This document shows, piece by piece, positions 1 through 35,609 of a DNA stretch of 37,806 nucleotides. The notes beneath the pieces were generated by a model, which ran no database searches, was not told the DNA's origin, and worked only from the letters and a program-made list of their open reading frames with translations. The stretch is from an uncultured Gemmatimonadaceae bacterium. Its GTDB lineage: Bacteria > Gemmatimonadota > Gemmatimonadetes > Gemmatimonadales > GWC2-71-9. Every line of letters begins with the position of its first letter. The stretch's first letter is position 1. A program made the translations under genes and the position numbers. The stretch covers positions 16,481 through 54,286 of the forward strand of contig CAYWNR010000001.1 of assembly GCA_964459705.1 (NCBI GenBank), read 5' to 3'.

Positions 1-2389
1 CGAAGCCGTTCACCAGCGAGACGAAGAGATCGCCGGAGAGCGTGACCGCGCCGGTCACCGCCACGTGATCGTATTCCGTCCCCGGCGTCGTGCCGCCCAG
101 CTCCACCTCCACGTCCGACATGGACTGCACGTCACCGACCACCGCCAGCGTGGCGATGCCGAATGGAGCCCCCGGCGCCCCTCCCGGCGCGACCAGGCCC
201 GGAGCGCTGAACGCGCTGGTGCTCACGTCCACGGTGCCGGCCCCGCGCAGTCGTCCGGTGTTGACGAACGTGCCGCCGTCCACGGTGAGCGTCCGGCCCG
301 CCGAGACCGTCAGGTCCACCCTGTTGGTGAAGCTGGGGTTCGTGCCGGACTGGACGAACGTGAGGTCGCCGCCGGCAATCTCCAACGCGTCCTCGTTCTG
401 ATGCGCGGCGGACGGCCGATCCACCACCAGCGCGTGATCGATGCGGGCGAGGTAGCGGTTGTCCAGCTCCGCCCGGAGCACGCGGGCGCCACCCATGGTG
501 CCGGGTTCGGAATGCAATTCGCCTTCGCCGTCGATCAGCAGCGTGCCGTTCACCGCGAGGATGGCCGCCCGCGCCGCCGCCGGATCGCGGTTGGTGAGGA
601 GCAGCTGCCCTTCGTTCGTGAATCCCGCGGCCACGGTCAGCACGGCCGAATCGGCGCCTTCGGACGCGATCTCGATGACCGTGCTGCTGTTCGTCGCGAC
701 CGCTCCGGTGATGGCGGCGCGTCCGCGGACCCACAGGTTTCGCAGCACGTTCATGGGCGCGGCGATCGTGGCCGCGCTCCCACCGGCTTCGCGCAGCACG
801 ACGGTGCCGTTGTCCGACACGCCCCACGCACTCGCAACGGAGCCACCGGTGAGGTCGAGCACGCCGCCATCCATGACGAGCACACCGCTATCGGCCGCCA
901 GCACGACGTTGGAGAACGCCAGGGTCGTCTGCTGCCCGCTGACCCCGCCATCCCCCAGGACGAGCTTCCCAACGGTCACGGCGGCAGTTGCCGCACTGAC
1001 GGTGTACGTCCCTGACAACGTGATCAGCGCCGTGTCATTTGGCCCTGGCACGCTTCCGGTACTCCAATTCGTCCCGTCACTCCAGCTCCCGCCGGCCGCA
1101 TTGATCCACGAGACATTTCCGCCGGTCCCCGCTGCAACGACGCGCGCTACGACGCTCGTCGCGTTGTAGTCGATCTGCCAGACACCGGTTGTCAGCGTGG
1201 GCAGATACAGCGTCGGGAACGCGCCGCTTACGCTTCCCGCCGTTAGAACGGTGAACGCGTCACCGACCGCCGGCACGAATCCGTTCATCAACTCCAGTTG
1301 CAGGTACCCGTTCAGCGTCGCGGAGCCACTCACGAGGATCTGGTCGTACTCGCCGTCAGGGGTCGTACCACTGATGTCGATCAGGGTGGCGGCCGACGGT
1401 CCCAGCGGGAGGTTGCCAACGACCCTGAAGGTCCCCGGCAGGCCGAAGGTGTTCGGGGACAGGTCGCCGTCGGCCCGAACGAAGCTGGTCCCCGAGACAT
1501 CGAGCGTTCCCGTGCCACGCAGCCCGCCCGTCGACGTGAAGGTCCCGCCGGTCACCACCAGGGTACGCCCAGCATCGATGGTGAACCCGGCCCCGCTGAG
1601 CGTCGGGTTGGTCCCGGTCTGCACGAACGTCAGGTCACCGCCGGTGAGCATGCCGCTGCCGACGTGCACCGCGGAGGGCCGATCCACCACGAGCGACTGG
1701 TCGACGTGGACGCGCGCGGAGTTGTCCATCAGGACCTGGGCACGCAGGGTCCGACTGCCACCCATGGTCCCGGGCTCGACGAAGAAGTCGCCCGTTTCGC
1801 CGTCGATCTGTAGGGTACCGCCTGATACCTCGAGCGTCGCTGCGCGCGGCGCGGCCGGATCGAGGTTGGACAGGTAGAGATCGCCAGTGACCACGAGGCC
1901 GGTGGCCAGTGTCAGCACCGCCGAGTCCGCCGCTTCCGACGCGATTTCAATCAGGGACCGATTGTCGGTGAGCGTTCCCGTGATCGCGCCGAGGCCCCGA
2001 ACCAGGAGGTTTCCACTGTTGGCGAACGACGTTGCGATCGTCGCGGGACTGGCGTTGAAATCCCGCAGGACGACCGTGCCGTCGTTGAGCACGCCGGCCG
2101 CACCCGCCACGGACCCACCCGTCAGGTCGAGCACTCCACCCACCGTGACCCGTATTCCACCCTCGGCCGTGAGCGTCACCGCCGACAGCGCCAGCGTCAT
2201 CTGCCCCCCGCTCGCGCCGTCGTCACCCACCACCAGGCGACCCACGTTCACCACGGCGTCCGCGTCGGTCACGGTGTACGTCCCCGAGAGCGTGATCAAC
2301 GCGGTATCGCTTGGGCCAGGAACGGTTCCGGTGCTCCAGTTGCTGCCGTCGTTCCAGTTCCCGCCAGCCGCGTTGACCCACGAGACATT
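1..2389 (-). repeat. Two tandem 1272-bp (424-aa) coding modules inside the lipoprotein gene; the second reaches the window edge
   Basis: Module starts NVSWVNAAGGNWNDGSNWSTGTVPGPSDTALITLSGTYTV (Asn codon 2389-2387) and NVSWINAAGGSWSDGTNWSTGSVPGPNDTALITLSGTYTV (1117-1115). The modules are collinear throughout. Examples are EPGTMGGSRTLRA / EPGTMGGARVLRA, GGDLTFVQTGTNP / GGDLTFVQSGTNP, and GEYDQILVSGSATLNGYLQLELMNGF / TEYDHVAVTGAVTLSGDLFVSLVNGF. By eye roughly half the residues are identical. Confidence 0.85.
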
Positions 2390-4501
2390 CGCACCGGTCA
2401 GGGGCGGAACGACGTCGAACGGGAGGCTGGTCGCCCCAGTGACCCCCAGGGTCGAGGCCGTGAGCGTGTAGCCCGTTCCCGGGGCGTCGAGGATCAAATC
2501 CCCGAATGTCGCCACGCCGTTCGCGACGTCCTGATCGGTCGTCCCAGCGAGCGTGGCCCCACTGGGATTTGTCCCGATGGCCACCGTGACCGGATTCGGA
2601 AGCGCCGGCACGACGTTCCCCGCCGCGTCGCGCACCGTCACCTCGACCGCCGGGCTCAGTGCCTGCCCCACCGTCGTCGCGCTTGGTTGCACGGTGAACT
2701 CGAGCCGATCCGCCGCCCCCGGAGTCACCGTCACGCTCGCCGTGCCGTCCACCCCTTCCACGGTGGCGGTGATGGTGGCGGTCCCGACCAGCGCCGCCTG
2801 CACCAGGCCGTTCCCATCCACACCAGCCACGGGCGAATCGCTCGAGGCCCACGTCACCGTGCGGCCGGTGAGCGGGTTGCCGCCGGCGTCCCGCGGCGTG
2901 GCCGTCAGCTGCACCGTGGCGCCGGACGCCAGTGTCGTGGCCGGCGGCGTGACGTCCACGCTCGCCACGGACACGGCCGTCACGGTCACACTCGCCGTGC
3001 CATCCACTCCTTCCACCGTCGCCGTCACCGTCACGGGGCCCGGCGCCACCGCCGTCAGGAGTCCCGTGGTATCGATCGTCGCGATCGCACCGTCGCTCGT
3101 GCTCCACGCGACGGTGCGGTTCGTGAGTGCGTTGCCACCGGCGTCCCGTGGCGTCGCGGTGAACTGCTGGGTACCGCCCGCCGTGAGGGTCACGGTTGCC
3201 GGCGTCACGTCCACACTCGCCACCGGCACCGCCGCCACCGTCACGCTCGCCGTGCCGTCAACACCCTCGACTGTCGCCGTCACCGTCACCGGGCCCGGGG
3301 CCACCGCCGTCAACAGACCCGTGCTGTCGATCGTCGCGATGGTCCCGTCGCTCGTCGCCCACGTCACCGCGCGGCCCGTGAGCGCGTTCCCACCGGCATC
3401 CCGCGGCGTCGCCGTGAACTGCTGTGTCCCGCCCGCCGTCACCGTCGCGGTCGGCGGCGTGACGTCCACGCTCGCCACGCTCGATACGGCCGTGGCGGAG
3501 AACGCCGCGATGAGGAGGCCGCCGATGTCGGCGCGTACCGTCTGTGGCTGGCCCGCGGCGCCCAGCGTCCATTGCACCGTCGCCTGGCCCTGGCCATCGG
3601 TCACCACCGAGGTATCCGAGAGCGTGCCGCCACCGGCCGTGACCTGCCAGGTGACGGTGACGGCGGGTACGCCGTTGTCGAAGCGGTCGGCGGCCCGCGC
3701 CACGAGCGGAACCGGGAGCGCCGCCCCGGGTTGTCCGGCCTGTCCATCCCCACTCAGTGCCACGAGCGTGGTGGCGGCCCCTGGCCGCGCGGTCGCGGAG
3801 AACGTGGCCACCGCCTGCGGCAGGCGGGTCGCGCGGGCCTCGATGGTGTTGGGACCCGCGACGGTCCCCAACGTGTACCGCACCGCTGCGACCCCGCTCG
3901 AGTCGGTCATCGCCGAGTCACTGGACAGCGACCCGCCACCCGTCACGACCGCAAAGGCCACGGAGATGCCTGGCACGCCGTTTCCGCGCCGGTCCGTCAC
4001 TTGCGCGCGGAGGCTGTCCAAGAGGACCTCGCCGACGATTCCGAGTTGGCTGTCGCCTGCCGCAACCGCGAGCGCGGTCGGCACGGGCTGCACCACGATG
4101 CTCGCCCCCACGCTCGCCGTGGTCACCCCGCCACCCGTCGCGGTGACGGCGATCTGCGCTACGCCCGGTGCGTTGGCCACCACGGCGCCCGTGGCCCCCA
4201 CGGATGCGATGCTATCGTCGGAACTCGTCCAGTTCAGCGTCACACCCGGCGGCAGCGTGTCGAACGGGCGGCCCTCCTGATCCAGCACTGTGGCGGAGAG
4301 TTGCGACGTCTGGCCCTCGTTGAGGACCATCTGGAGCGCGCTGAGCTGCACCGCCCGCGGCGCGCGCGTGGGTGTCTCCGGTGCCAGCACGTACTCCGCG
4401 CAGGCGGCGGCCACGGCGGTCATGAAGGCGACCAGCAGCAGCCGTCTCGCTGCCGAGCGCGGCGCGCCTGTGTCGGGGACCTGGCGGTGGGCGCGGCGCA
4501 C
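1..4501 (-). CDS. Large surface lipoprotein/adhesin-like protein; the 3' end runs off the left window edge. Lipoprotein-type signal, one Big_2 domain, two Big_1-like Ig domains, three tandem Big_2 domains, one further Ig-like domain, then two 424-aa beta-helix/passenger-like modules.
   Basis: Not in the supplied ORF track, because it has no stop inside the window. Reverse-complement translation from GTG 4501-4499 gives VRRAHRQVPDTGAPRSAARRLLLVAFMTAVAAAC-AEY, a possible lipobox with Cys at 4402-4400. Further on comes VASVDVTPPTATVTAGGTQQFTATPRDAGGNALTGRAVTWATSDGTIATIDSTGLLTAVAPGPVTVTATVEGVDGTASVTV, which fits the Big_2 pattern. Later comes NVSWVNAAGGNWNDGSNWSTGTVPGPSDTALITLSGTYTV. I checked this frame codon by codon and it stays open down to nt 1, ending ...GDLFVSLVNGF. 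The alternative start ATG 4423-4421 would remove the signal n-region. The plus-strand ORFs listed here are T/S/A/V/P-rich or R/H/G-rich artefacts. Confidence 0.85.
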   Translation of the reverse strand, partial: MRRAHRQVPDTGAPRSAARRLLLVAFMTAVAAACAEYVLAPETPTRAPRAVQLSALQMVLNEGQTSQLSATVLDQEGRPFDTLPPGVTLNWTSSDDSIASVGATGAVVANAPGVAQIAVTATGGGVTTASVGASIVVQPVPTALAVAAGDSQLGIVGEVLLDSLRAQVTDRRGNGVPGISVAFAVVTGGGSLSSDSAMTDSSGVAAVRYTLGTVAGPNTIEARATRLPQAVATFSATARPGAATTLVALSGDGQAGQPGAALPVPLVARAADRFDNGVPAVTVTWQVTAGGGTLSDTSVVTDGQGQATVQWTLGAAGQPQTVRADIGGLLIAAFSATAVSSVASVDVTPPTATVTAGGTQQFTATPRDAGGNALTGRAVTWATSDGTIATIDSTGLLTAVAPGPVTVTATVEGVDGTASVTVAAVPVASVDVTPATVTLTAGGTQQFTATPRDAGGNALTNRTVAWSTSDGAIATIDTTGLLTAVAPGPVTVTATVEGVDGTASVTVTAVSVASVDVTPPATTLASGATVQLTATPRDAGGNPLTGRTVTWASSDSPVAGVDGNGLVQAALVGTATITATVEGVDGTASVTVTPGAADRLEFTVQPSATTVGQALSPAVEVTVRDAAGNVVPALPNPVTVAIGTNPSGATLAGTTDQDVANGVATFGDLILDAPGTGYTLTASTLGVTGATSLPFDVVPPLTGANVSWVNAAGGNWNDGSNWSTGTVPGPSDTALITLSGTYTVTDADAVVNVGRLVVGDDGASGGQMTLALSAVTLTAEGGIRVTVGGVLDLTGGSVAGAAGVLNDGTVVLRDFNASPATIATSFANSGNLLVRGLGAITGTLTDNRSLIEIASEAADSAVLTLATGLVVTGDLYLSNLDPAAPRAATLEVSGGTLQIDGETGDFFVEPGTMGGSRTLRAQVLMDNSARVHVDQSLVVDRPSAVHVGSGMLTGGDLTFVQTGTNPTLSGAGFTIDAGRTLVVTGGTFTSTGGLRGTGTLDVSGTSFVRADGDLSPNTFGLPGTFRVVGNLPLGPSAATLIDISGTTPDGEYDQILVSGSATLNGYLQLELMNGFVPAVGDAFTVLTAGSVSGAFPTLYLPTLTTGVWQIDYNATSVVARVVAAGTGGNVSWINAAGGSWSDGTNWSTGSVPGPNDTALITLSGTYTVSAATAAVTVGKLVLGDGGVSGQQTTLAFSNVVLAADSGVLVMDGGVLDLTGGSVASAWGVSDNGTVVLREAGGSAATIAAPMNVLRNLWVRGRAAITGAVATNSSTVIEIASEGADSAVLTVAAGFTNEGQLLLTNRDPAAARAAILAVNGTLLIDGEGELHSEPGTMGGARVLRAELDNRYLARIDHALVVDRPSAAHQNEDALEIAGGDLTFVQSGTNPSFTNRVDLTVSAGRTLTVDGGTFVNTGRLRGAGTVDVSTSAFSAPGLVAPGGAPGAPFGIATLAVVGDVQSMSDVEVELGGTTPGTEYDHVAVTGAVTLSGDLFVSLVNGF
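2714..3478 (-). repeat. Three tandem 255-bp (85-aa) coding repeats, each one Big_2 Ig-like domain
   Basis: Repeat starts GTGGCGAG(C/T)GTGGAC(G)TC/GACGCCG on the minus strand at 3478, 3223 and 2968, an exact 255-nt period. All three copies end in TATVEGVDGTASVTV. Copies 1 and 2 are nearly identical at protein level and copy 3 is more diverged. Confidence 0.9.
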
Positions 4502-4503
4502 GC

Positions 4504-6177
4504 TCAGAAGCTCCGCGCCAGCGAGAGCGTCAGGAACGACTCCTGGAACGCCGGCCGATTGCCGATGGCGGCATAGCGGCTATGCCGAGCCTGCAGTGAC
4601 ACGCGGCCTTCCCACGGCAGCGCGTAGCTCAGCTGGCCCGTGGCCGCGGTGACCGCGCGTCCGTTGTTGTACGTCTGCGAGAAGCTGACCGACGGCCGCA
4701 GGTTGCCGAAGCGTCCCTGACCGCGGAACCCGGCGTGCACGTTGCTCTGGCGCTCGCCGCCCTCGGTGTTCGTCACCGCATAGGACACGGATGGCGTAAC
4801 GCTGATCGTTTTCGACAGCGCCAGCTGAATAGACGTTGAGACGTTGTGGACGGTGATCTGCGGGATGCGCGTGATGACGTTGGCGTCGGCGGTCCGCTGG
4901 AATGCGTAGGCCATGCTCACCGTCGTCCGCATGCCGCCCAGCGAGGCCTGCAACGCCGTATTCGCCGTGAGGGCGAGCGACCGACTATCCACGACGAACG
5001 TGTCCACCGCGGCGTCGTTGGCAATGACGCTGTTCATCCCCGTCAAGGTCGCCGTGATGCGTCGGGACAGGAGTGCCGAGACGCTCGCCATCACGGCGTT
5101 CCGATTGGTCGTCGTGGCCTTCTGGCCGAGGAGGTTGTCGTTCTGGTGCTGGTACTGGCCCTGGACGCTCACGCGGTTCCGGAGCAGCCGCACGTTGCCG
5201 CCGGCGTTGTACGCCCGCCGATCGTTGATCACATAGGCGAGCCCGAGCGACGTAAAGCCGGCGCCGACGTACTCGTATCCGCCCTTGAGCCCGGCCGGGC
5301 CGAGGCTGACGGTTCCGTCGAGCTTGAAGGCGTAGTCACCCGACGACGAGAGCGTGAGCGGGATGAGACCGCCGACGAGATCGCCACCCGTCACGCTCGC
5401 GGGATCGACAGCCGGGCTCTGCACGTCCCGCGTGATCACCGCCACGGCCCCCTCGCCAGCAAGCACGAACCGGCGTCCGAACAGGCTCACCTGGCCGCGT
5501 GAGCCCAGCACGAGGTTCTCCTGCGGGCGGGTGTCGTAGCGCGGCCGCAGGGCGACGGGGATCGTATCGAGCAGCAGCGTGTCTCGCAGCGCGGAATCGA
5601 GCGACGACGGGTCGTCTTTCGCGGTGAGGACGAGCAAGTCGAGGAACGAGGACTGCTCTCGACCAACGCCAATCGACCCCGCGTACAGGTTGCGCCGGAA
5701 CGTCTGGTTGCCGGCCCCGCCCGCGACGACGCGCTGGGAGCGCCCGCCCTGGAGCGAGAGGCGGAAGATGCCGGGCCGGAGATCCACTCCACCACCGCGC
5801 AGGCGTGTGCCCTGCACCGTGTAGGCCGAGTAGTTCTGGCTGAAGTCGCCGGCGTGGAACGTTGCCCACTTCCAGCGCGGGCTGATGCCGAACTGGCTGA
5901 TGTTCTGGCGGAACTGGCTGCCCTCCGACGACACCAGGATGTTGAGGCCGACGCTGAAGGTCCCGAACAGGGTGAGCTGGGGAGACAACGACATCCGCCC
6001 CAATTCTCCGGGGCGCCGGGCGTCGATGCCGGACGCCCGGTAGCCCTCGCCGGTCATCACGATCTGGCCCGACATCCGCACCGGGATGGGAAGCGCGAGC
6101 CCGCGCGGCGGCTCCTGGGAAGCGAGCGTGGCGAACGGAACGGCGAGGAGCCAGAGACAGCGCGCGGCGCCGGTCAT
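4504..6177 (-). CDS. Outer-membrane beta-barrel protein (557 aa), family not recognised
   Basis: The internal ATG at 6177-6175 yields a signal peptide, MTGAARCLWLLAVPFATLA-SQEP. The 63 upstream residues of the listed ORF are R/P-rich junk that overlaps the TPR gene. The protein has alternating hydrophobic/polar strands rich in G, S, N, Y and R, and a C-terminal ...LTLSLARSF with terminal Phe, the OMP signature. Its ATG overlaps the upstream gene's TGA as ATGA. Confidence 0.8.
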   Translation of the reverse strand: MTGAARCLWLLAVPFATLASQEPPRGLALPIPVRMSGQIVMTGEGYRASGIDARRPGELGRMSLSPQLTLFGTFSVGLNILVSSEGSQFRQNISQFGISPRWKWATFHAGDFSQNYSAYTVQGTRLRGGGVDLRPGIFRLSLQGGRSQRVVAGGAGNQTFRRNLYAGSIGVGREQSSFLDLLVLTAKDDPSSLDSALRDTLLLDTIPVALRPRYDTRPQENLVLGSRGQVSLFGRRFVLAGEGAVAVITRDVQSPAVDPASVTGGDLVGGLIPLTLSSSGDYAFKLDGTVSLGPAGLKGGYEYVGAGFTSLGLAYVINDRRAYNAGGNVRLLRNRVSVQGQYQHQNDNLLGQKATTTNRNAVMASVSALLSRRITATLTGMNSVIANDAAVDTFVVDSRSLALTANTALQASLGGMRTTVSMAYAFQRTADANVITRIPQITVHNVSTSIQLALSKTISVTPSVSYAVTNTEGGERQSNVHAGFRGQGRFGNLRPSVSFSQTYNNGRAVTAATGQLSYALPWEGRVSLQARHSRYAAIGNRPAFQESFLTLSLARSF

Positions 6178-6884
6178 AGCCGATCTCCGCGGGTAGCGGC
6201 GGCGATGCGCGCCGCCTCGTCGTACCGGCCGAGCCGGTGCAGGATCTCGATCTCCTGCTCGCGCACGACTCGACTCTCGGGGTGGAGGATGCGGATGCGG
6301 GCGACGCTCTCGCGGAGCCGCGCGAGGCTGCCCGCACGTTCGTGGGCATGGACCAGCGCGCGCCATCCGCCGTCATCCTCGGGGGCCAACTCCCAATACG
6401 CCTGGCGCGCCCGCAATGCCTCGGCGGTCTGGCCGAGGGCGTCGTAGGCCTCGGCGCGCCAGCGCAGGAGCTGGGTGTCCCGCGGCATGGAGACACGCAA
6501 CCGGTCGGCGAGCCGCAGGACCGCGGCGGGGTCGTCCGCAGCGATGGCGGCTCGGATTTCGGCCCGCCGCACGAGCTCCGCCCCGGGCAGCTCGGCCGCG
6601 AGACGCTGGATCGCGGCACGACCGCCGGGCCCGGCGGTGATCAACCGATCCAGATCGCGCGCGATCTCCGCACGCGCTCGGTCCCGTCGCTCGAGGATGG
6701 CATCGTCCGGGCGGCGGAGCCCGCTGGCGCCGCTGGCCGGCATCAGCTCGCGCTCCGCGCGCTGGAGGTCCGCCACGTGTTGACGCACCGCGCGCGCGGC
6801 GGCCGCGACATCCGTCTGCCCCTGCGCACGCGCCGCCGCGGCGCCGCCGCACAGCATGACGAGGCACACGGCGCGGTGGATCAT
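6174..6884 (-). CDS. Secreted (periplasmic) TPR-like helical repeat protein (236 aa)
   Basis: Signal peptide MIHRAVCLVMLCGGAAAARA-QGQ. The rest is Ala/Leu/Arg-rich helical hairpins, for example AEAYDALGQTAEALRARQAYWELAPEDDGGWRALVHAHERAGSLARL and EILHRLGRYDEAARIAA. There are ATGA overlaps at both ends (6881-6884 and 6174-6177). Confidence 0.75.
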   Translation of the reverse strand: MIHRAVCLVMLCGGAAAARAQGQTDVAAAARAVRQHVADLQRAERELMPASGASGLRRPDDAILERRDRARAEIARDLDRLITAGPGGRAAIQRLAAELPGAELVRRAEIRAAIAADDPAAVLRLADRLRVSMPRDTQLLRWRAEAYDALGQTAEALRARQAYWELAPEDDGGWRALVHAHERAGSLARLRESVARIRILHPESRVVREQEIEILHRLGRYDEAARIAAATRGDRL

Positions 6885-14800: not shown

Positions 14801-17800
14801 AGCCCCTCCGCGGAGAGCTCCATATCGCGGAAGACGAGGTCCACGTCATCGAGTGGTCCAGGGAGCGTCGCGCGCAGGTCCGCCTGTAGGTGATAGCCGC
14901 CCGCGCCGCCACGGTACGCGAGCTGCGTGATCGCCACCGGGTAACCCGGCAGCGTGATGAGCGGTGCTCCCGCCTGGGTGCTCACGACGATCTCGCCGCT
15001 CAGCGGCCGGAGGTTGCGCGCGTTCAGGACGAGGTCGAAGCTCGTCCGCACGTCCGGTGGCGCCCCGCCGTCCGCGAGCGCTGGCAGCACGAGGTCCACT
15101 TGCTCGTTCGGCCGGGTCCGGATCCGCAGGGTTTCGGCGGAGAAGATCGTCTCCACCAGGAGGACCGAGGTGTCCGCCGGGTTCCGCAACTGGAGGTAGG
15201 CCACGTCTTCGCTCGGGATCCCGAGGCGCGCCGGGATCGGCAAAACCGCAAAGACGTTGCCCGGCCAGAAGCCGAGCCGGTTCACGTACGCGATCAAGTC
15301 GCCTTCTGGACTCCGCAGGTCGAGCCGCCCCTGCGTGATCGCCACCCGTGGCGAAAACCCGATCGTGAACGCGCTGTCGAACGTCGCCGTCAGGGCCGCG
15401 TACGTCTCGCCGCCGTAGCCAAGCGATGCCGTGGCGGTTCCCGTCAGCTCCACTCCGGCCGTGTCGATCACCGCGCCGGCCGACAGCACGATGCGCGCGG
15501 ACGCGCCGGTTCCGCGGGGCTCGGTGGCCGGGAAGACGCCATACACGAGATCACCGGACTCCCCGATCTCGATCCCCACCGCCAGGTCGGCGGTGACGTG
15601 GATGCGTCCCTTCGCGAGCGTGCCGGTGTTGAGATCGAAGGCGACGTCTTCGAACCCGACGTCAACGCCGGCACCCTCGGCGGTCCGCAGCTCGCCCGTG
15701 GCGCCGAACTGCAGCCAGTGCTGCGTGAGGGACGCCTGGTTGACGACGAGACGCAGGAAGGGGTTCGCCGGGTCCGGCGCCCAATAGAACGGCTGGTCGA
15801 TGCTGGCCTCCGCGTCGACGACTTCGCCGCGGATCAGATCGATGGACAGGGTCCCGGTGGCGGAGACCGTGTCGCCCGCTTGATCGCTGAGGAGCCGCAC
15901 GACAACCGACGCGTCGAGGCCGGCCTCGACCGTCCCCGAGTCCGCGTCGTAGCCGAATCGGACGGTGCTGTTGCCGATCTGCGCCTCAAGCGGGCCGAGT
16001 GCGACGACGCAGGTGGGAAGCACGTTCCGGACCGATCCGTACAGCGTCCCGTTACCCGCAATGAAGAGCGTGTCCGTAGGGGACTCGAGCGATACGGTGC
16101 CAGAAACCGCGGACGGACACGCGAGCAGGTTTGGCAGCGTGAGGTCGGCAAGCAGCCCGATTCGCACGTCGCCCGGCCCATTCTCGGACAGGTCGAACGA
16201 GCCGAAGGCGCCGCGGATGTCGGCGACCGGCGTCCGGAGCGGACGTGGGAAGTCCACGCGCTCGAACGTTCCCGTGAGCCGCCCATTCGCGAACCCCACA
16301 TCGAGCGCGCGGATCGTGAAGCGGGCCGTCTGGTCGTCAAGACCGGAGGGGATGTCCTCGATCGCGAACTCAAGGTCCACGCCGAAATCCAGCTCGGGCG
16401 GCGGCGCGTTGCTGGACCAATCCCAGCGGAATTCGCCCACGCGGTACGCGAGCGCGCGCACGGCGAACCCCCCGACGCGCAGCGGGCGCAGGGAGTCGCT
16501 GCCGGACTCGAAGGGGCCGTTCGGATCGGAGATCGTCGGAACCGCGGGAAGCTCGAACCCCGGCACCACCATGCCCTGCGGCGTGATGTGGACGTCCCGG
16601 ATCTCCGGAAGGCGCAGACTGTCAAGCGCGGGGATTTCGATGGCCGCGTCGAACAGGAACTCGAAGTCGAACTGTGACTGCGCGATGTCCCAGCGGAACT
16701 GCGGCGCGCGGAACCGTCCCAGCAGCAGGTCGACGCCTGGCAGCGGGACGCGGAAGAGCGAATCGGGCGACTCGAAGTTCACGAGCGCCGCTTCGGTTGG
16801 GGACAGGCGGAACGTGGCCGTGGCGATCTGGGTCGTCCGGTCCGCATCCGGGTCCACGTAGGCGATGTGGCCCGGCAGCTCCAGCCGCCACGCGAACGTC
16901 GCGTCGAGCGGTCCCTGGGCCTGGAACCGGAGCGTGTCGATGCCGAACCGCAGACGGGATACGCCGGGCACTAGCGCGACACTGTCGCTGAACGGCTGCT
17001 CGATGTCCGCCGACAGGATGCCGCCTCCCTCGAGCCCCAGCGTGATGCGCAGCGGCTCCTGGCCGTTCAGCAGTGCCAGCCGCCCGTGCGCGAGGAACGA
17101 CGGCTCGCTTCCGCGCTCCGCCCGAAGTGCGATCGAGTCGAGGACGAACGGGAAGTCGGCGGTCGGCTGGCCGCCCGCGGCCCCTGAGCTGGTCTTCGCG
17201 CTCAGCTGACCGGAGATCGGAAGGAGCGTTCCGCGGTCGAGCGTGAGGTCGAACGCAACGTCGAGCGCGGGCGGATCCGGTCGCGTGCCCTTGAGCGCGG
17301 GAACGACGAGCCGGAGTGTCTCGCCCGTCCGCGTGCGGAAGCGCAGTCCGTCGTCCGTCGAGTCCACCTGCACCAGGAGGTTGCCGGTCGTGTCCTTGAG
17401 CGGGACGAAGGCGGTCGCGCGGTCGCGCAAGAACAGCGTGTCCGGGATGACCGCTGTGAGCAGCTCGGCGAGCGCGAGATGCCACCCGGAGGCGTCCAGG
17501 TACGCGATCGGATACTCCTTCAGGTGCACCGTCGCGCGGCCGCCTGTGACGCGCCCGCTCGCGGGCTGAACCGCGAAGCCCTCCTCGAACGTGACCGACG
17601 CGTCGTCGAACCGCGATCCCCGGACGGCCACCTGCGCCGGTGCCCGGCCCTGGAGACGGAGGCCGTCCGCATTGACGGCCGGTGCGGCGGGCAGCACCAA
17701 CCGGATGTTCCCGCCACCCCAGTCACTGTCCTTCGGGTCGAACGAGCCGCTCGCGAGACTTGGCGTGAAGTTCTTGGCTCCGCTCCACACGAAGCCGATC

Positions 17801-20800
17801 GGCGACGACTCCAGTGCCAGTCCCTCCATCATCCCGATGGCACCGGAGGTGATGTCGCCGGAGGCGGGATTGAGATACACTCCCGCGAACGTGACGCTCA
17901 CGGTGTCCGTCCGGTGCGTGTACACGCTGTCGATACGTTCCGCGTTGTAGTCCTTGACGCCCGACATCACGGAATCGACGAGCATCCGCTGTCGTCCGTC
18001 CACGAGCAGACCCCGCGGGCTCAGCGTGGCCCGGGCGACGATGAACGTCAGCATGCCCCACTCGAGCTTAAACGGACCTTCCAGCGCGATGTCGCCGGAC
18101 AGCAGCCGGCCGGTGATGTAGTCAATGCGCGCCGTGGCCGTGGGCGCGTCCTGCGTGCCGCTCAGGACCCCGCTCGCCAACCCGCCCGCCGGACCGGCGG
18201 CCTGCGCAGCCGCGTCCGCCCCGGCTTTGGCCTTGTCCTGTACGGCAGCACTCTCGTCCGACGCGCTGGTCTTCGCCGGTTCTTCCTTCTTCGCCTCCTC
18301 GATCCGCCCGAAGTCCACCTTGATCGACCCATCGTAGATGGCCGTCTGCGTGCCGGAATCGCTGACCGCGAGCACCAACTGCCCACCGGCCGGGGAGAGC
18401 TTCGCGAATCGCAGGTCGAACTGGACCCAGGATGGTTGGAAGCCCTCCAGGGTACCGCGCAGCCGACCCGTGGGCGTCAGCCGCAGCTCACCGTTCAGCT
18501 CGTGAGAGGTCGTCTGGCCTAAGCACCCGACCACCGGCAGCCCGCAGTCGGGATCCGGTCGCACCAGGGCGCCCGCGATCAGGGGAAACTCGGTCACCCG
18601 GGGCGTATCGCCGAGGGCAAAGACCACCTTCCCATCCACGGTCTCGACGCTGACGTGCAGGTTGTCGGCCTCGCGCAGCACGCAGCCATTCTCGAAGCGA
18701 TGCTCCTGGAGGGTCGCATCGATGCGGCCATCCTTGACCACCAGAGTGTCCACCTCGAACGGCTGCTCGTTGAGACATGCCGACTGCTCCAGGGGCACGT
18801 GCGGGAAGGAGACCCAGCTCGTCCCCGACCCCCACTCGAAGCCGGGGTCTTGGCCGCTCAGCCAACGGTCGTAGGGCACTTGCTGGCCAACGAATCCCAT
18901 GGTGCGTGGCAAGAGCTGCACGCTATCGATCTCGATGACACCGGACGTTTGCGTTCCTGGCGCGTCCGAACTGCTGCCGGGCAACGTCACGCCGGTCTCG
19001 TCGAGGACAACGCCCTCAATGGGTGGGAGCTGGAGGTTCTCCGCCCCCCGCGCCTGGGGTGCAAGGTCCACCAACGCCCGCCAGACGAGTCGCCCGCCTG
19101 GATCGAGGTCGAATCTGTCCAGCCGCAGGTTCGACAGTCCCATCCGGACCCAGCCGAAGTCCGCGTACGCATGGCCTGCGTCGCAGTCGCTGCGCTCGTC
19201 CTCGCGCGTCAGTGACTCCCGCCCGAGCACGAGGGTGAAATCCACCGTACACCCTTCGCTGGCGTCGCCGAACACCTGCAGCGTCGCCGGCGCTCGGAGG
19301 TCACTCTCCAGTCGGTCGCCGAGGAAATCCGCGGTGAGTGAGCCCGCGATCGTGCCGAACGTCACCAGCGGACGCGTTTCAGCTCCGCCCGGCGCGAAGC
19401 CGCCCGTCGGTCGACAGACAACCGGGATCGTGACCACGCCATCAGCCAGCGTTCCCGTGGCCGAGCAACCGACATCGGCGCCGAGCACGCGCACCTGCCC
19501 CGTCATCTCGAGGCGTCCCGTGGGCAGGAGGAGCCGCGCCTGGTCCACCGCGTACTGCACCGGTGAGCCTCCGATGCTCGCCAGGGGAGCATCCGCCGGA
19601 GCGGTTCTCTCCAGTTGACCGAACAATCCAGCCGCGGTGACTTGTGCCCGCCCCGTCAGGTCCATCGGTGCGAACCCCGGGAGTGCCACCTGCGCCGCCA
19701 GCGTGAGTCCTGAACCGGTCTCGTAGCCAAGTTGGGTGAACCGCACCAACGGTCCTGCCGCCGCCGCGAGATCGCTGCCGGACTTCACCGCGCCGCTGAG
19801 CTCTCCGGACCGCACGACTGCGAGGCTCTGGATGCTGGTCCGATCGATCTCGAGGTCGCGTGCCTCGACGCGCACGATTGTCCGGAGCGGCGCCTCCAAC
19901 TCGAGGTTCAACCACCCGTTGACGACGTACGCGAAATCGGTGAGACCGACCTCGGCGCTCCGAAGGCCCGTGAGTTGCGCCACGCCCGGGATGAGCGTCA
20001 GCGTGTCGGGTAGTTCCTTCGTCACTCCCGTCTCACGGCCCGGTCCACCGACTGAAAACGTCCAGATCTCGCTCGACCGTCCACCGCGCGTCACGGGCCG
20101 GCCCTCGCCGTCGAGCGCTTCGACCGACCACACGTACTGCTTCATGGGATCGAGGGGCAGCGCGTCCAGCGGGTAGACGACCATCGGAGCGCCGGTCTCC
20201 TCCTCCTCGAACCACACCGGATTGGCGAAGACGGCGGTTTCCGGTGTCTGTCCTTTGAGCAACTCGAAGACCCGCACCCGATACGACGCGCCGATCTCTG
20301 GCGGCAGGAAGATCGGGGTCCATTGAAAGACGGGCAGGAGTCCGGCCACGACCCCCTGGTTGGCCGGGAAGATCAGCTGCGGCGGCTCCGGCAGCGCGAT
20401 TGTGAAATCGGCGCACGTAGACACCAGCTCGACGTTTTGCGCGTCGAGCACGCGCGCGCACATCTGGTGTCGGCCCTCCGGGATCATCCCGGTGCGCAGC
20501 ACCTGGTCCACGTACTTCTGATCCTGGCGGACGGTCTCCCAATCGAGGATATCGGCGCCAGTGAAGATCTGCGTGACGGGCCCGAACCCGAACGAGACGG
20601 ACGGACTCACGACGCGGGCCAACTCCCCGCGCTCGGCGCTCTGGACCCACCCCTCGACGCGGAAGTCCTGCGGTGCCGTTCCACTGTAGATGAGCGTCAG
20701 GACCGCCATCTGGGGATTGCGCTCCCAGTCGGCGATGAACGGAGACGGAAACGGCTGGACCAGCAGACTGGCGGTCCACCCGGGGGCCTGCGCGGCCAGC

Positions 20801-20931
20801 TCGGCGGGCTGGGTGCCGCCGACCAGGACGGCGAGCAGCACCCCCAGACGCACCCAAGCGCCCCCGTTGGTTCGAGGGCGCCTCCCAGGCCGGTCGTCCG
20901 CGGTCGCCATTGCGCCGAACACAGCCGTCAA
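8878..20931 (-). CDS. Giant secreted protein (4017 aa from TTG 20931; 4010 aa from ATG 20910), family not recognised. N-terminal signal, small beta-sandwich-like modules, ~2600 aa of beta-rich repeats, ~490-aa helical segment, four C-terminal FN3-like modules.
   Basis: A single uninterrupted 12-kb frame with protein-like composition and G/C-rich third positions. Signal-like N-terminus ...GGAWVRLGVLLAVLVGGTQPAELAAQA-PGW. There are internal repeats, a K/E/A-rich linker and an Ala/Glu/Leu/Gln-rich helical block. C-terminal modules carry DPESGI / DPETGI / DDETGV / DPESGL motifs. The start is ambiguous: TTG 20931-20929 overlaps the upstream small ORF's TGA as TTGA, and ATG 20910-20908 is the first ATG. 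Confidence 0.9.
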   Translation of the reverse strand: MTAVFGAMATADDRPGRRPRTNGGAWVRLGVLLAVLVGGTQPAELAAQAPGWTASLLVQPFPSPFIADWERNPQMAVLTLIYSGTAPQDFRVEGWVQSAERGELARVVSPSVSFGFGPVTQIFTGADILDWETVRQDQKYVDQVLRTGMIPEGRHQMCARVLDAQNVELVSTCADFTIALPEPPQLIFPANQGVVAGLLPVFQWTPIFLPPEIGASYRVRVFELLKGQTPETAVFANPVWFEEEETGAPMVVYPLDALPLDPMKQYVWSVEALDGEGRPVTRGGRSSEIWTFSVGGPGRETGVTKELPDTLTLIPGVAQLTGLRSAEVGLTDFAYVVNGWLNLELEAPLRTIVRVEARDLEIDRTSIQSLAVVRSGELSGAVKSGSDLAAAAGPLVRFTQLGYETGSGLTLAAQVALPGFAPMDLTGRAQVTAAGLFGQLERTAPADAPLASIGGSPVQYAVDQARLLLPTGRLEMTGQVRVLGADVGCSATGTLADGVVTIPVVCRPTGGFAPGGAETRPLVTFGTIAGSLTADFLGDRLESDLRAPATLQVFGDASEGCTVDFTLVLGRESLTREDERSDCDAGHAYADFGWVRMGLSNLRLDRFDLDPGGRLVWRALVDLAPQARGAENLQLPPIEGVVLDETGVTLPGSSSDAPGTQTSGVIEIDSVQLLPRTMGFVGQQVPYDRWLSGQDPGFEWGSGTSWVSFPHVPLEQSACLNEQPFEVDTLVVKDGRIDATLQEHRFENGCVLREADNLHVSVETVDGKVVFALGDTPRVTEFPLIAGALVRPDPDCGLPVVGCLGQTTSHELNGELRLTPTGRLRGTLEGFQPSWVQFDLRFAKLSPAGGQLVLAVSDSGTQTAIYDGSIKVDFGRIEEAKKEEPAKTSASDESAAVQDKAKAGADAAAQAAGPAGGLASGVLSGTQDAPTATARIDYITGRLLSGDIALEGPFKLEWGMLTFIVARATLSPRGLLVDGRQRMLVDSVMSGVKDYNAERIDSVYTHRTDTVSVTFAGVYLNPASGDITSGAIGMMEGLALESSPIGFVWSGAKNFTPSLASGSFDPKDSDWGGGNIRLVLPAAPAVNADGLRLQGRAPAQVAVRGSRFDDASVTFEEGFAVQPASGRVTGGRATVHLKEYPIAYLDASGWHLALAELLTAVIPDTLFLRDRATAFVPLKDTTGNLLVQVDSTDDGLRFRTRTGETLRLVVPALKGTRPDPPALDVAFDLTLDRGTLLPISGQLSAKTSSGAAGGQPTADFPFVLDSIALRAERGSEPSFLAHGRLALLNGQEPLRITLGLEGGGILSADIEQPFSDSVALVPGVSRLRFGIDTLRFQAQGPLDATFAWRLELPGHIAYVDPDADRTTQIATATFRLSPTEAALVNFESPDSLFRVPLPGVDLLLGRFRAPQFRWDIAQSQFDFEFLFDAAIEIPALDSLRLPEIRDVHITPQGMVVPGFELPAVPTISDPNGPFESGSDSLRPLRVGGFAVRALAYRVGEFRWDWSSNAPPPELDFGVDLEFAIEDIPSGLDDQTARFTIRALDVGFANGRLTGTFERVDFPRPLRTPVADIRGAFGSFDLSENGPGDVRIGLLADLTLPNLLACPSAVSGTVSLESPTDTLFIAGNGTLYGSVRNVLPTCVVALGPLEAQIGNSTVRFGYDADSGTVEAGLDASVVVRLLSDQAGDTVSATGTLSIDLIRGEVVDAEASIDQPFYWAPDPANPFLRLVVNQASLTQHWLQFGATGELRTAEGAGVDVGFEDVAFDLNTGTLAKGRIHVTADLAVGIEIGESGDLVYGVFPATEPRGTGASARIVLSAGAVIDTAGVELTGTATASLGYGGETYAALTATFDSAFTIGFSPRVAITQGRLDLRSPEGDLIAYVNRLGFWPGNVFAVLPIPARLGIPSEDVAYLQLRNPADTSVLLVETIFSAETLRIRTRPNEQVDLVLPALADGGAPPDVRTSFDLVLNARNLRPLSGEIVVSTQAGAPLITLPGYPVAITQLAYRGGAGGYHLQADLRATLPGPLDDVDLVFRDMELSAEGLRGQVELGQYSETYVPSAPAIAEAQFRGDTLAVRLTGARLTLAPNANVVEVSGAIHSVFLASAEGTPLPIHLAARVDAQGFHGTADVSDPETPIAIGQAALTIENGFGQPGIVVDATAQDFALRLGGTLRLPDLAPGFALSVHDLRVGSTGITLPNISITAPTSTAEFELFGAQFALQDSVVGSTQVAPAVDVAIAAGVVRFTMSGYVTLLQNTMRFIGLQVGTDGSFALQGANFLSRPIDIIPGYAQLTTARIATRALELAGAVTLPPPFTSRAPQEVTVHVLPDGRVTGGGHVVLIDEPEGLASAQTKVSAGVATFHLRRLDLALDFENQANTAASMVADVYVQDDPSNLLRFGSVSGGTVTPGIRIAANGAVTWGGLAMPSPITVRMAPATLTVRQATAQPTETGFAVALGGSLALDVAGGSGTLTFHNVGFTSAGEVNLGEASFDGGTFTIQEKVKLVVGRVAWNREESSIFVPVAQPPASDGSVRPDSVSVTVRNYLDFGASVDVAGVFKGGVDRVLVYVRASDSTTHLLIHNLAVEIPDVVAFQASLSYDELPNGFDLSLATEGTLLGHYEVAMVGVMRRRADQFSAGIFLRTSVEVPLVPGVVTLTGVGGGFFINPSTTDLQLVKNVAGLNGPSADRVGMPPAGQFAVMLYASVDVVGAGGASAASGRAMLTITDQAAQLNAMATFFNMHNQISGDLALQVGWSPAAYVRGDVTLVVNIEKTVSGSAGIQFFAGSNTFAVKGNADFTILDVIQANAEVIVVPSGFTVSMGYSVSKSTNALSATVGANLRLWYRPSTSDLGAFLTFTGQVTAMGVTGELGMIGALVIEPQLAIYAQGTARVVGVDLLTFEVWAQYTPGGFAMGLGRSEELAAVLAHAQQVASELESEANDILAGIDAAAQELARTPIPVSRESLAAAYANFQRWNWVQMLVGWNGFRAMEGTTRGGLLPTTATDPYVAFYERVLSNSEAAADTAEVVQLRAEAEHKLAVIVDQRAEVEARIRAVRLQLADLEETAAFVPPADPVTTWSSGSPALVEGPAGPDGAPTMVLTGVPEFALDDEASATARGTMSAAQAATVARQAQMRDQIAAVESGLATVLAATSGTDAASFASYARLHSDAVETIEREHAVNVEFRMRRLSWTLAKLDTLAQERPGVEQRLNAKLGDISSYQQTLGNPDYLQRSGTAVELDALAASRVHYLSEWAGDPSLEQTYASDAASWRAQRVAAAKALKSDSLDGAASARMDQALTWFRTQAVSYGLRTWWEVADAGLTQARDGARAVVDGAADTAELVIRSARDQLASLTSSLAALNEQQAELYGVLHDLYDDYLRTYGTTGTEGQQFSARLAELNEMLQAPRVTSPRVVVTDYGFLSSITTTWSGTHPRGVYEYLLQEGSDSLHSVGGTGEAVRWAYSTEPAGGTVARNQHVLVRGGAGLTGEALTPYTLTFSSTPVATPHSTVAVPPVDLTPPGRPVVEFVGLPTLVNVDGVGEVWTADSTRVTARWSASDPESGIAEYAYRVLALPVEQTTTQTSSLLGRATLVRPTVLVDWTSVGGRTSAAIQGLHLAASQKIHVEVRATNGAGLVGDIGQSPVLRLDPTPPVFPVGSQLVPPAGMFATPRAPVLLISQPAPSPACGTTTSLRSGEERPVWDGRLVTVVPTGGIVGGDARVRLTLGRPDATDPETGIYGYLYRVDSVAPGPVLPNDGWADIPEATPSFVATGPDFRYGKPRFVTLVAINALGVKSAPLTYGPVTVPDATVPSRPAFCAGYSAGIIAYLTTLATDDETGVLGYQIRVRDAVTGVTVRGFPSGSTVDWPASQALANTGVRIPFTPAGGWRFLVDLRAVSGLGVAGDVASSGEVLADVTPPQPAGVSGRIVNGAAVLTLTVQTDPESGLGGVDISFGTSSTEPILSSGTSTYSIPYVAYPVAAGTSTRTIQLPAQILQASQLYVFVRVKNGAGIASKASSARIR
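10717..12192 (-). other. Predicted alpha-helical / coiled-coil-like segment of the giant protein (residues ~2914-3405)
   Basis: The composition changes sharply from G/T/V/S/D-rich beta-type sequence to A/E/L/Q/R-rich runs. Examples are SEELAAVLAHAQQVASELESEANDILAGIDAAAQELA, VVQLRAEAEHKLAVIVDQRAEVEARIRAVRLQLADLEE and LASLTSSLAALNEQQAELYGVLHDLYDDYL. Confidence 0.6.
18127..18300 (-). other. Lys/Glu/Ala-rich low-complexity linker in the giant protein (residues 878-935)
   Basis: EEAKKEEPAKTSASDESAAVQDKAKAGADAAAQAAGPAGGLASGVLSG. I verified codon coordinates directly: GAG GAG GCG AAG AAG GAA GAA starts at 18300 on the minus strand. Confidence 0.7.
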
Positions 20932-21137
20932 CTCATTTTGGTAGCGTCACTTGCCCACGCGCTGAGCAAGCGGAGGAGTTCTTCGGAATCCTCGAAGTTG
21001 CGCCGGTCGGCAGTGCCGAGGCGCTCGATCATCCCGGCGCACGTCGGTGGGTCGCCTGCGGTGGCCAGCCGCAGCTTGAGGACGAAATACCCGTAACCCG
21101 TTGTCACAAAAGTGTCTCCCTCACCCCGGCGGTCCAT
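20928..21137 (-). CDS. Small hypothetical protein (69 aa), first gene of the operon
   Basis: ATG 21137-21135 is preceded by AGGAA nine nt upstream. The composition is protein-like: MDRRGEGDTFVTTGYGYFVLKLRLATAGDPPTCAGMIERLGTADRRNFEDSEELLRLLSAWASDATKMS. Its TGA overlaps the TTG of the giant ORF as TTGA. The antisense ORF 20910-21155 looks less protein-like. Confidence 0.5.
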   Translation of the reverse strand: MDRRGEGDTFVTTGYGYFVLKLRLATAGDPPTCAGMIERLGTADRRNFEDSEELLRLLSAWASDATKMS

Positions 21138-21182
21138 GGCGTCGGTTCCTGGTGACGTGACGCAGATTGAAGCTCACCCCGA

Positions 21183-21222
21183 CCCGTCAGCGGGCCGTGA
21201 ACCGGGTGTCAACCGCGTGTCA
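21183..21222 (-). promoter_or_regulatory. Four direct heptamer repeats at exact 11-bp phasing; candidate SARP/OmpR-type activator binding array upstream of the operon promoter
   Basis: The minus strand reads TGACACG cggt TGACACC cggt TCACGGC ccgc TGACGGG. Plus-strand unit starts are 21216, 21205, 21194 and 21183. A weak -10-like TTCAAT lies 11 nt downstream (21171-21166), about 28 nt ahead of the small-ORF ATG. The array also ends 8 nt before the regulator's GTG on the other strand. Confidence 0.45.
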
Positions 21223-21230
21223 GGCCCCCC

Positions 21231-28124: not shown

Positions 28125-28136
28125 GGGGGGTCGAAG

Positions 28137-29630: not shown

Positions 29631-29850
29631 CGCGTAATCAGCGAAGATAGACCGTGGACGGCAGGGGCGGCAACGCGGCCGCCGAGGGGGGGATCCCCGG
29701 GCCCCCACGCCCCGAGGCGACCGCGAGGCGTCCCATAGAGACGGACTGGACCCCTCATTACCTTTCGACCCGTTCCCCCGTCGAGTCGATCGATGGTTAC
29801 GCCGCCCGCACCACGGGGTTGACCAGCGACCCCTTTGCGAGAAAACCGCC

Positions 29851-33111: not shown

Positions 33112-33125
33112 GTTCGCCGTTCAAG

Positions 33126-35542: not shown

Positions 35543-35609
35543 GCGCCGGCGGGCGGCACACCCCGGCGCGCGGTATCGCCGGAGCGTAGCCGGGTCTAAG
35601 ATTCCCCCC

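Follow-up and report, generated by a model that had tools for sequence, protein, structure and literature searches.

Here we describe an envelope gene module organized around a 4,010-residue secreted protein of an uncultured Gemmatimonadaceae bacterium, encoded in a 37,806-nucleotide stretch of DNA (hereafter the window; contig CAYWNR010000001.1 of GenBank assembly GCA_964459705.1, positions 16,481 to 54,286). The giant protein (B) is encoded with a fibronectin type III (FN3) protein (C), a periplasmic tetratricopeptide repeat (TPR) protein (D), an outer-membrane beta-barrel with 26 predicted strands (E) and an immunoglobulin (Ig)-rich lipoprotein (F), and more than 25 loci, distributed over Gemmatimonadota, Zixibacteria, Ignavibacteriota, Calditrichia and Bacteroidota, keep the order giant-FN3-(TPR)-barrel. 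By remote sequence similarity the giant appears to be a distant, toxin-less relative of the TANFOR giant exoproteins, and we judge the chances evenly balanced that the TPR-barrel pair forms a dedicated outer-membrane route by which a surface protein of fixed geometry is exported or anchored.

Gene set and conservation of the module

Minus-strand coding is unbroken from position 1 to ~20,910 in the plot of G+C by codon position (window G+C ~70%), and frame analysis by third-position G+C (GC3), translation and inspection of start sites upheld five genes on this strand. Their junctions, in turn TGATG, ATGA, ATGA and a 2-nt gap, indicate that the five are translationally coupled, and on inspection of the sequence all five products carry N-terminal signal peptides. 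A preliminary description of this DNA had counted six genes here and assigned the giant 4,017 residues. Five of the six stand, on GC3, coupling and signal peptides, while the sixth, a 69-aa open reading frame (ORF), is probably no gene; the secreted giant is real and carries a Sec signal, but it measures 4,010 aa from its ATG (8878..20910, minus strand; GC3 0.86), the longer figure relying on a TTG seven codons upstream. A public Logan contig also calls the giant at 4,010 aa and stops within gene F, and the operon does run off the left edge of the window, as described, with F cut there.

Conserved gene order had been set beforehand as a check on this operon, and the order proved to be conserved across phyla, in agreement with the proposal of a dedicated, co-inherited envelope module. 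About 20 of the loci lie in Gemmatimonadota metagenome-assembled genomes (MAGs), several genomes having two copies; one lies in Zixibacteria, and two have a G+C content of 44% and giants of 3,140 and 2,168 aa. Loci of the Ignavibacteriales and Bacteroidota encode a shorter large protein (1,776-2,119 aa) with the giant's N-terminus, and three of these four have a beta-propeller lipoprotein instead of the TPR protein. In the Ignavibacteriales-type loci L028-L030 the module is followed by a Y_Y_Y sensor kinase together with a LuxR response regulator. The Calditrichia locus L026 encodes, directly downstream of a barrel homolog, a 990-aa protein with the giant's N-terminal domains (11818-14790 of that locus), which may be a short, toxin-type member of the family. 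The conserved core is four genes (giant, FN3, TPR, barrel) together with a divergent regulator. We also noted an additional ~200-aa gene after the large protein in L028-L030, and on the 990-aa Calditrichia protein a Cys-rich C-terminus that is unrelated to that of the giant and drew nothing in a PDB sequence search.

An exhaustive HMMER search with giant residues 2271-3420 recovered 206 representative clusters, of which 96 reach E <= 1e-30. Most of the family is ~3,850-4,100 aa long; among the best 150 of these 206 the median length is 3,854 aa, and the core domain always lies at ~2150-2900. In homologs of 4,700-6,400 aa the surplus residues precede the core and the C-terminal remainder is still ~600 aa; the giant's branch is not polymorphic at its C-terminus. 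Source names, where given, read 'hypothetical protein' (Zixibacteria, Melioribacteraceae). Giant genes in L005, L009 and L016 are split by frameshifts in long-read MAG assemblies, and 'short' giants such as a 1,739-aa call are artefacts of assembly.

Identity to other loci differs from gene to gene, and the operon is a mosaic in which the change falls at the D/E junction near 6177. The window's giant, C and D are ~60% identical to those of L023, L024, L025 and L032, where the barrels are just 41% identical to E; conversely, E shares 83% identity with the barrel of L007, a locus in which C and D reach just 45% and 34%. These comparisons suggest that the barrel, and perhaps F too, has been exchanged between paralogous systems.

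Architecture of the giant and its relation to TANFOR exoproteins

From its N-terminus the giant consists of a signal peptide, a TANFOR-like Ig pair, an amphipathic beta-meander of ~2,600 aa, ~490 aa of very long helices and about five FN3-like domains (all coordinates that follow are on the minus strand). The Sec signal peptide, read from the sequence, spans residues 1-41 (20788..20910) with cleavage predicted after AAQ, and all full-length homologs have comparable ones. The two Ig-like domains (residues 42-300; 20011..20787) are the best-conserved part of the protein by conservation profile; the first, which is the TANFOR-like one, carries the motifs PSP[FY]xxDWERNP and RTGxLPEGxY, and Ig_Rha78A_N was matched in 5 of 11 giant homologs. 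Further on lie two ancient, beta-rich tandem modules of ~800 aa each (14635..19515; I, residues 466-1270; II, residues 1271-2092). Slices of a 26-sequence alignment pair the two modules at hhalign probabilities of 97.5-99.9%, and piecewise BLAST pairs residues 1155-1244 with 1892-1982, the giant being otherwise non-repetitive. The conserved core (residues 2093-2906; 12193..14634; alignments A2 and A5) contains an invariant GGGFFxNP and leads into the long-helix region (residues 2907-3395; 10726..12192) and then the C-terminal FN3-like domains (8881..10725), where a DxE[ST]G motif recurs at 3548, 3721, 3823 and 3930.

Giant homologs match FN3 and Ig models only, at the two ends, with fn3 found in 5 of 11 and the C-terminal profile finding titin FN3 only. 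For the central ~3,000 residues there was no Pfam, NCBIfam or PDB sequence match, and PDB searches, whether by single sequence or by profile, returned nothing past titin-type FN3. Likewise, when the window proteins and 11 giant homologs were searched against Pfam and NCBIfam there was no toxin domain, immunity gene or C-terminal domain (CTD) of the type IX secretion system (T9SS).

To this we added an AlphaFold2 (AF2) model of residues 2271-3420, which takes in just residues 2271-2906 of the core (predicted local distance difference test score, pLDDT, 81.8 overall and ~75-92 in the core blocks). Across residues 2271-2906 the model predicts ~45 long, amphipathic beta strands arranged in a meander; next come helices of up to 95 residues, with a beta-hairpin inserted between helices, and then the first FN3-like domain. 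The strand faces have mean Kyte-Doolittle (KD) hydropathies of 1.98 (hydrophobic) and -0.38 (other), a contrast exceeding that of barrel E. Foldseek placed the ApoB100 beta-belt on top (2.6e-6), then LptD, TcdA1, MtrB and ushers, all with TM-scores of at most 0.27; against BFVD it found SMC/SbcC coiled coils and one tail fibre only. On this model the fold class would be a very large curved amphipathic sheet joined to a long-helix region, and no family is assignable to it.

A sheet of this kind could belong to a protein that carries hydrophobic cargo in the periplasm or while spanning the envelope, as do bridge-like lipid transfer proteins such as TamB, YhdP or LptA, and that docks on an LptD- or TamA-like barrel. 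Such a role would account for the strong amphipathicity of the strands, which the giant shares with AsmA-like proteins, TamB and the ApoB100 beta-belt in long antiparallel runs, and it fits the rank of ApoB100 and LptD among the Foldseek matches and the strand count of E, the same as in LptD. The resemblance nonetheless goes no further than TM-scores of at most 0.2, with no similarity by hidden Markov model (HMM) or hhalign, and the giant has a cleavable signal peptide, no inner-membrane anchor, and helical and FN3 regions. Its ~2,600-residue sheet far exceeds the length required in a periplasm, C-terminal FN3 domains and secreted-toxin fusions occur in relatives, and a dedicated regulator and paralogs are atypical of housekeeping lipid transport. 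We therefore consider a lipid carrier improbable. TamAB itself was rejected, as no giant homolog matched AsmA, TamB or DUF490 and there is no Omp85 barrel partner; hhalign against the Escherichia coli proteins gave 0.1% (alignment A5 to TamB) and 0.4% (A1 to TamA), with single-sequence templates, which may miss very remote homology.

The long-helix region drew weak Foldseek matches, confined to the coiled-coil, TcA and MakA classes, and these bear on a reading in which the giant is itself a membrane-active toxin of Tc or ClyA type, its helices and sheet inserting in target membranes and the barrel serving as release pore. That the family is tied to a toxin class, that a hairpin interrupts the helices and that TcdA1/XptA2 and MakA appear among the matches would all suit such a toxin. 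The matches are poor, however (TM-scores of at most 0.11 to TcA and 0.27 (TMt) to MakA, at probabilities of 0.3-0.97), TcB/TcC partners and an immunity gene are absent, and the giant ends in a conserved FN3 array, and we regard this reading as quite improbable.

The one productive lead to a described family came from the N-terminus. TIGR02542 (TANFOR) was first seen in one giant homolog, where it mapped to the first N-terminal domain, and it proved to be the sole recurrent family among 32 family N-termini, matching 8 of them (best E 3.3e-8), all below the curated cut-off. In the window giant the match spans residues ~106-166 (E 0.027, 14.4 bits against a cut-off of 67), and the matches cover model positions ~76-142 of 145, its C-terminal half. 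TANFOR proteins are large, bear Sec signals, are almost exclusive to Bacteroidetes and reach 4,059 aa in the published set (Jana, Salomon & Bosis 2020, PMC7073777). Many end in C-terminal polymorphic toxin domains with immunity genes, and they constitute a class of polymorphic toxins (PMC7073777). Their export route was left unexplained, the authors speculating on T9SS (PMC7073777). A Tannerella forsythia TANFOR protein appears in a proteomics table of that species' proteins from vesicle fractions (extracellular or outer-membrane vesicles; PMC10682907).

The neighbourhoods of the two classes are also alike in the sizes and positions of their members. Tannerella, Dyadobacter, Larkinella and Salibacter repeat one layout (Supplemental Data 1, PMC7073777): the gene for a 547-567-aa protein with no annotated domain, and with a predicted signal peptide in most rows, usually shares 17 nt with the start of the TANFOR gene, and a 662-672-aa signal-peptide protein (Fn3 where annotated) is encoded downstream of the TANFOR gene, directly or past one or two small inserted genes. 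Fn3 and PKD proteins are enriched near TANFOR genes, with PKD lipoproteins in Flavobacteriia, and the partner genes were left uninterpreted (PMC7073777). E (557 aa) and C (665 aa) are of the same sizes as these neighbours, both classes of locus thus having signal-peptide neighbours of ~560 aa and ~665 aa (Fn3) plus PKD- or Ig-rich lipoproteins. The giants themselves have in common a Sec signal, an N-terminal Ig-like domain with sub-threshold TANFOR similarity, very large size, Fn3 content and hosts in the Fibrobacterota-Chlorobiota-Bacteroidota (FCB) group.

They differ in that the window clade has no C-terminal toxin or immunity gene: its C-terminus is the conserved FN3 array, and where TANFOR toxin genes have an immunity gene downstream the window giant has its FN3 partner. 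The barrel lies downstream in the window but upstream in Bacteroidetes and Calditrichia, and the window clade is hosted by Gemmatimonadota, Zixibacteria and Ignavibacteriota, the published class being near-exclusive to Bacteroidetes. Because the remote domain match is joined by a matching architecture and by the Calditrichia intermediate, we draw the link to TANFOR at the level of the module.

The barrel, its partners and known secretion systems

Partner C (6881..8878, minus strand; 665 aa) comprises a signal peptide, a ~170-aa N-terminal domain and five FN3 repeats; Pfam fn3 matched at 1.3e-18, and a ~100-aa periodic self-similarity is consistent with five units. Every locus examined has a syntenic copy, with identities of 23-65%. 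The periplasmic TPR protein D (6174..6884, minus strand; 236 aa) has weak TPR matches and is homologous to the conserved C-terminal ~150 aa of 600-690-aa TPR proteins in the same slot of other loci, as well as to the N-terminal TPR part of P0096, P0099 and P0100, in which TPR and barrel are fused in one gene. Locus L036 encodes a 646-aa TPR protein (19375-21315) with a faint match to PF24575 (TPR_Slam).

Modelled by AF2 with 55 homologs, E (4504..6177, minus strand; 557 aa, with a signal peptide and the C-terminus ...ARSF) is confidently predicted to be all-beta, with 26 strands, short loops and no separate plug domain (pLDDT 83.3, pTM 0.73). Its homologs fall into more than 120 clusters. Foldseek returned generic large barrels only, namely FimD (1.7e-8, TM 0.44), MtrB (the best TM-score, TMq 0.51), TonB-dependent transporters, SlpA and AlgE, with LptD not among the top 50 matches. 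At E <= 1 the 55 homologs matched no relevant Pfam family, just four unrelated ones by chance, each in a single homolog.

LptD and MtrB, two solved 26-strand barrels, each enclose a partner protein in the lumen. E is like LptD-LptE and MtrB-MtrA in its predicted strand count and in having no intrinsic plug, but it is without sequence relationship to either, and without the LptD beta-jellyroll or cytochromes. We rejected identity with these proteins, since OstA_C and MtrB_PioB went unmatched in the barrel homologs and CxxCH is absent. A chaperone-usher system was rejected too: FimD tops the Foldseek list only via its barrel, and neither Usher nor PapD was matched.

BcsC, PgaA, AlgK-AlgE and Slam of the type XI secretion system (T11SS) likewise couple, and sometimes fuse, a periplasmic TPR module to an outer-membrane barrel; Slam loci also encode a large lipoprotein beside the barrel, and the faint TPR_Slam match in L036 hints at a TPR partner similar to that of Slam/T11SS translocators, although this match and the TPR-barrel fusions amount to analogies only. 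The module differs from these exporters in its 26 strands (16-18 in the BcsC/PgaA/AlgE type, 14 in the DUF560 barrel of Slam), in having no polymer synthase genes or family HMM match, and in a cargo that would be a 4,000-aa protein. Slam/T11SS was rejected on strand number and because none of the 55 barrel homologs matched DUF560. The polysaccharide porins BcsC, PgaA and AlgKE were rejected because BCSC_C, PgaA and Alginate_exp were unmatched in the same homologs and no synthase is linked. More broadly, the TPR-barrel pair might export a polysaccharide or other polymer for which the giant and the FN3 protein are matrix scaffolds. The shared architecture, the gene fusions, the appearance of AlgE among the generic Foldseek matches and a family 2 glycosyltransferase (GT2) gene downstream in one locus (L034) are what such a system might leave behind, but synthase, glycosyltransferase and polymerase genes are unlinked in the other 25+ loci, which together with the unmatched porin families and the excess of strands makes polymer export highly improbable.

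The gene after the barrel, the leftmost in the window, encodes the Ig-rich lipoprotein F (1..4501, minus strand; at least 1,500 aa, crossing the window edge), with the lipobox AVAAAC and Pfam matches to Big_2 (four), Big_1 (three) and Invasin_D3. It contains a 424-aa tandem duplication (690-1075 against 1114-1500, 44-67% identity) that runs off the window edge, and three Big_2 units that are 54-77% identical mutually, with adjacent pairs at ~75%. In other Gemmatimonadota loci the slot after the barrel is held by proteins of 1,076-3,074 aa that are rich in Ig or PKD domains and are frequently lipoproteins; in L011, L019-L022, L024 and L025 these are Big_1/Big_2 lipoproteins of up to ~3,070 aa and PKD plus dockerin proteins of 1,076-1,436 aa. 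Because different large proteins occupy it, we regard this slot as a variable accessory position. The characters first assigned to C, D, E and F from the letters alone (five FN3 domains, periplasmic TPR, 557-aa outer-membrane barrel, Ig-repeat lipoprotein) are thus borne out by fn3 matches and periodicity, by weak TPR matches and homology to longer TPR proteins, by the AF2 strand count, and by the lipobox with its Big domains.

Against Pfam and NCBIfam, the window proteins and their homologs showed no signature of the type I secretion system (T1SS) or repeats-in-toxin (RTX) proteins, two-partner secretion (TPS) or POTRA, autotransporters, a T9SS CTD, glycosyltransferases or RHS; motif counts agree, and the same absences had been listed in the preliminary description. 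T1SS was rejected: the window has no ATP-binding cassette (ABC) or membrane fusion protein (MFP) genes and no RTX nonapeptides (zero GGxGxD motifs), and the giant has a Sec signal instead. Autotransporters were rejected for want of a signature, and TPS for want of both a TPS domain and an Omp85/POTRA transporter. With TPS and contact-dependent inhibition (CDI) systems (TpsA-TpsB, CdiA-CdiB) the module does have in common a giant Sec-dependent exoprotein encoded beside a dedicated outer-membrane barrel, and relatives of the giant that bear polymorphic C-terminal toxins; it differs in lacking the TPS domain, beta-helix repeats and Omp85/POTRA and in having a 26-strand barrel with TPR and FN3 partners. 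Generic Pfam/NCBIfam scans, made without direct comparison to Glt/Nfs sequences, returned nothing for Glt/Nfs, and the giant has no TPR; the same scans detected no secretin of the exopolysaccharide (EPS) type. Searches of the literature for giant proteins of Gemmatimonadota, for 26-strand barrels and for secretion systems of the FCB group turned up nothing relevant, the TANFOR lead alone being productive. It holds, then, that no characterised secretion system fits the operon, but given the remote TANFOR relative the earlier statement that it cannot be assigned to any described system was too strong.

A candidate route to the cell surface

From its sequences, the module is plausibly a self-contained apparatus for export or anchoring. 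What we infer for it is an outward direction of transport, exposure of the giant at the surface, a barrel acting as pore or anchor, and a function in contact. In the mechanism we propose, the giant, the FN3 partner, the TPR protein and the barrel would all leave the cytoplasm by Sec, after which the TPR protein would dock on the barrel. The barrel would then act as a dedicated conduit, an anchor or both, taking the giant to the surface and holding it there, with the FN3 partner possibly filling the barrel lumen. Once on the surface the giant would form a fixed-geometry structure touching other cells or substrates, to which the variable Ig-rich lipoproteins encoded beside the barrel would add, and expression would be conditional, under a divergent regulator of the Streptomyces antibiotic regulatory protein (SARP) type.

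Several strands of argument favor this mechanism. By analogy with LptD and MtrB, which enclose a partner protein, a barrel as wide as E would have to be occupied, and for that reason the TPR-barrel pair would be the best candidate for the conduit or anchor. That TANFOR relatives gained C-terminal toxins argues for export of the scaffold and for its coming into contact with other cells. A dedicated regulator, together with the paralogs (two copies per genome), speaks for an accessory role at the surface over housekeeping envelope biogenesis. More tentatively, and with somewhat less confidence than we would need to favor it, the 26-strand barrel, the TPR protein and the five-FN3 protein might together be a new export and anchoring pathway for TANFOR-type giants across the FCB group, one that replaces T9SS for the Bacteroidetes TANFOR toxins and is TPS-like in function but built of unrelated parts.

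These proposals have to be held against a number of observations that weigh in the other direction. The clade is known from sequence and models alone, and there is no toxin or immunity gene here. The TANFOR match lies far under the curated cut-off (14-31 against 67 bits) and covers half of the model, and the likeness of the Bacteroidetes neighbours to E and C is one of size, position and signal peptide only. The lineage of the barrel has been swapped relative to that of the giant, FN3 and TPR proteins, which disfavors a tight one-to-one specificity between barrel and cargo. The sheet as modelled is so strongly amphipathic that it might just as well form a groove for binding lipid. Finally, more than 95% of the genomes with TANFOR genes have T9SS, the export route favored by the authors who described the class, and SprB/CTD genes are enriched near TANFOR genes (PMC7073777).

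The last of these points supports an alternative in which T9SS exports the giant, and the barrel, TPR and FN3 proteins form no pore but a platform for surface attachment, as PorP/SprF does for SprB. The FCB-superphylum range of the module matches that of T9SS-bearing lineages, and SprB-SprF and the other T9SS giant adhesins come from the same superphylum and likewise pair a giant surface protein with a cognate barrel; the module is nevertheless without SprB repeats, a CTD or PorP/SprF similarity. Neither the type A nor the type B CTD was detected in the giant and 11 diverse homologs, and T9SS cargo was rejected because TIGR04183, TIGR04131, Por_Secre_tail and CHU_C were unmatched in the window proteins and these homologs. 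PorP_SprF was unmatched in E and its 55 homologs, and PorP-type barrels are much smaller than the 26 strands of E. We think export by T9SS unlikely, if less so than the other alternatives weighed above, and continue to regard the TPR-barrel pair as the candidate for a dedicated route.

The divergent regulator lies across the intergenic region from the giant (21231..25118, plus strand, by longest-ORF coordinates, its true start being uncertain) and by Pfam matches contains Trans_reg_C, BTAD (SARP), AAA_16 and TPR domains. L032 and L033 have a divergent BTAD/TPR regulator of ~940 aa at the same position (32-35% identity by tblastn). Between the divergent genes is an intergenic or leader region (20911..21230) in which scans for sigma-70-like promoters and terminators came back empty, as did Rfam. 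It holds the 69-aa ORF (20928..21137, minus strand), which we doubt because its GC3 is low (0.73 against 0.82-0.89 in real genes), because it has zero family matches in Pfam and NCBIfam, and because it has no counterpart in L032 and L033, where the orthologous intergenic regions span just 133-168 nt; it is probably leader region, not a gene.

The right half of the window encodes housekeeping proteins without relation to the operon. A tRNA scan came back empty. Two adjoining HEAT-repeat proteins (514 and 628 aa; 26580-30023, minus strand) lie between an M42 peptidase and an M28-PDZ peptidase and are unrelated to the operon, and 32808-37715 encodes a 679-aa polymerase of the PolX type, which has a PHP domain, and a 701-aa thioredoxin-like protein with DUF255, both ordinary housekeeping proteins. 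The host is a soil-type Gemmatimonadota bacterium.

What is new here is the breadth of the family, the co-inherited set of barrel, TPR and FN3 proteins, and a first fold-level picture of the giant, as predicted by modelling; the module is not without precedent, being a variant, distant and toxin-less, of the TANFOR giant-exoprotein loci. The predictions define a large uncharacterised fold, a ~2,600-residue amphipathic beta-meander with helices of ~95 residues, of strikingly constant length. For TANFOR-type giants the module supplies a specific candidate, open to testing, for a route dedicated to their secretion or anchoring, and it may reveal how this class exits the cell. That the scaffold exists without a toxin suggests that its primary function is at the cell surface or in contact, and that toxins were grafted on later.

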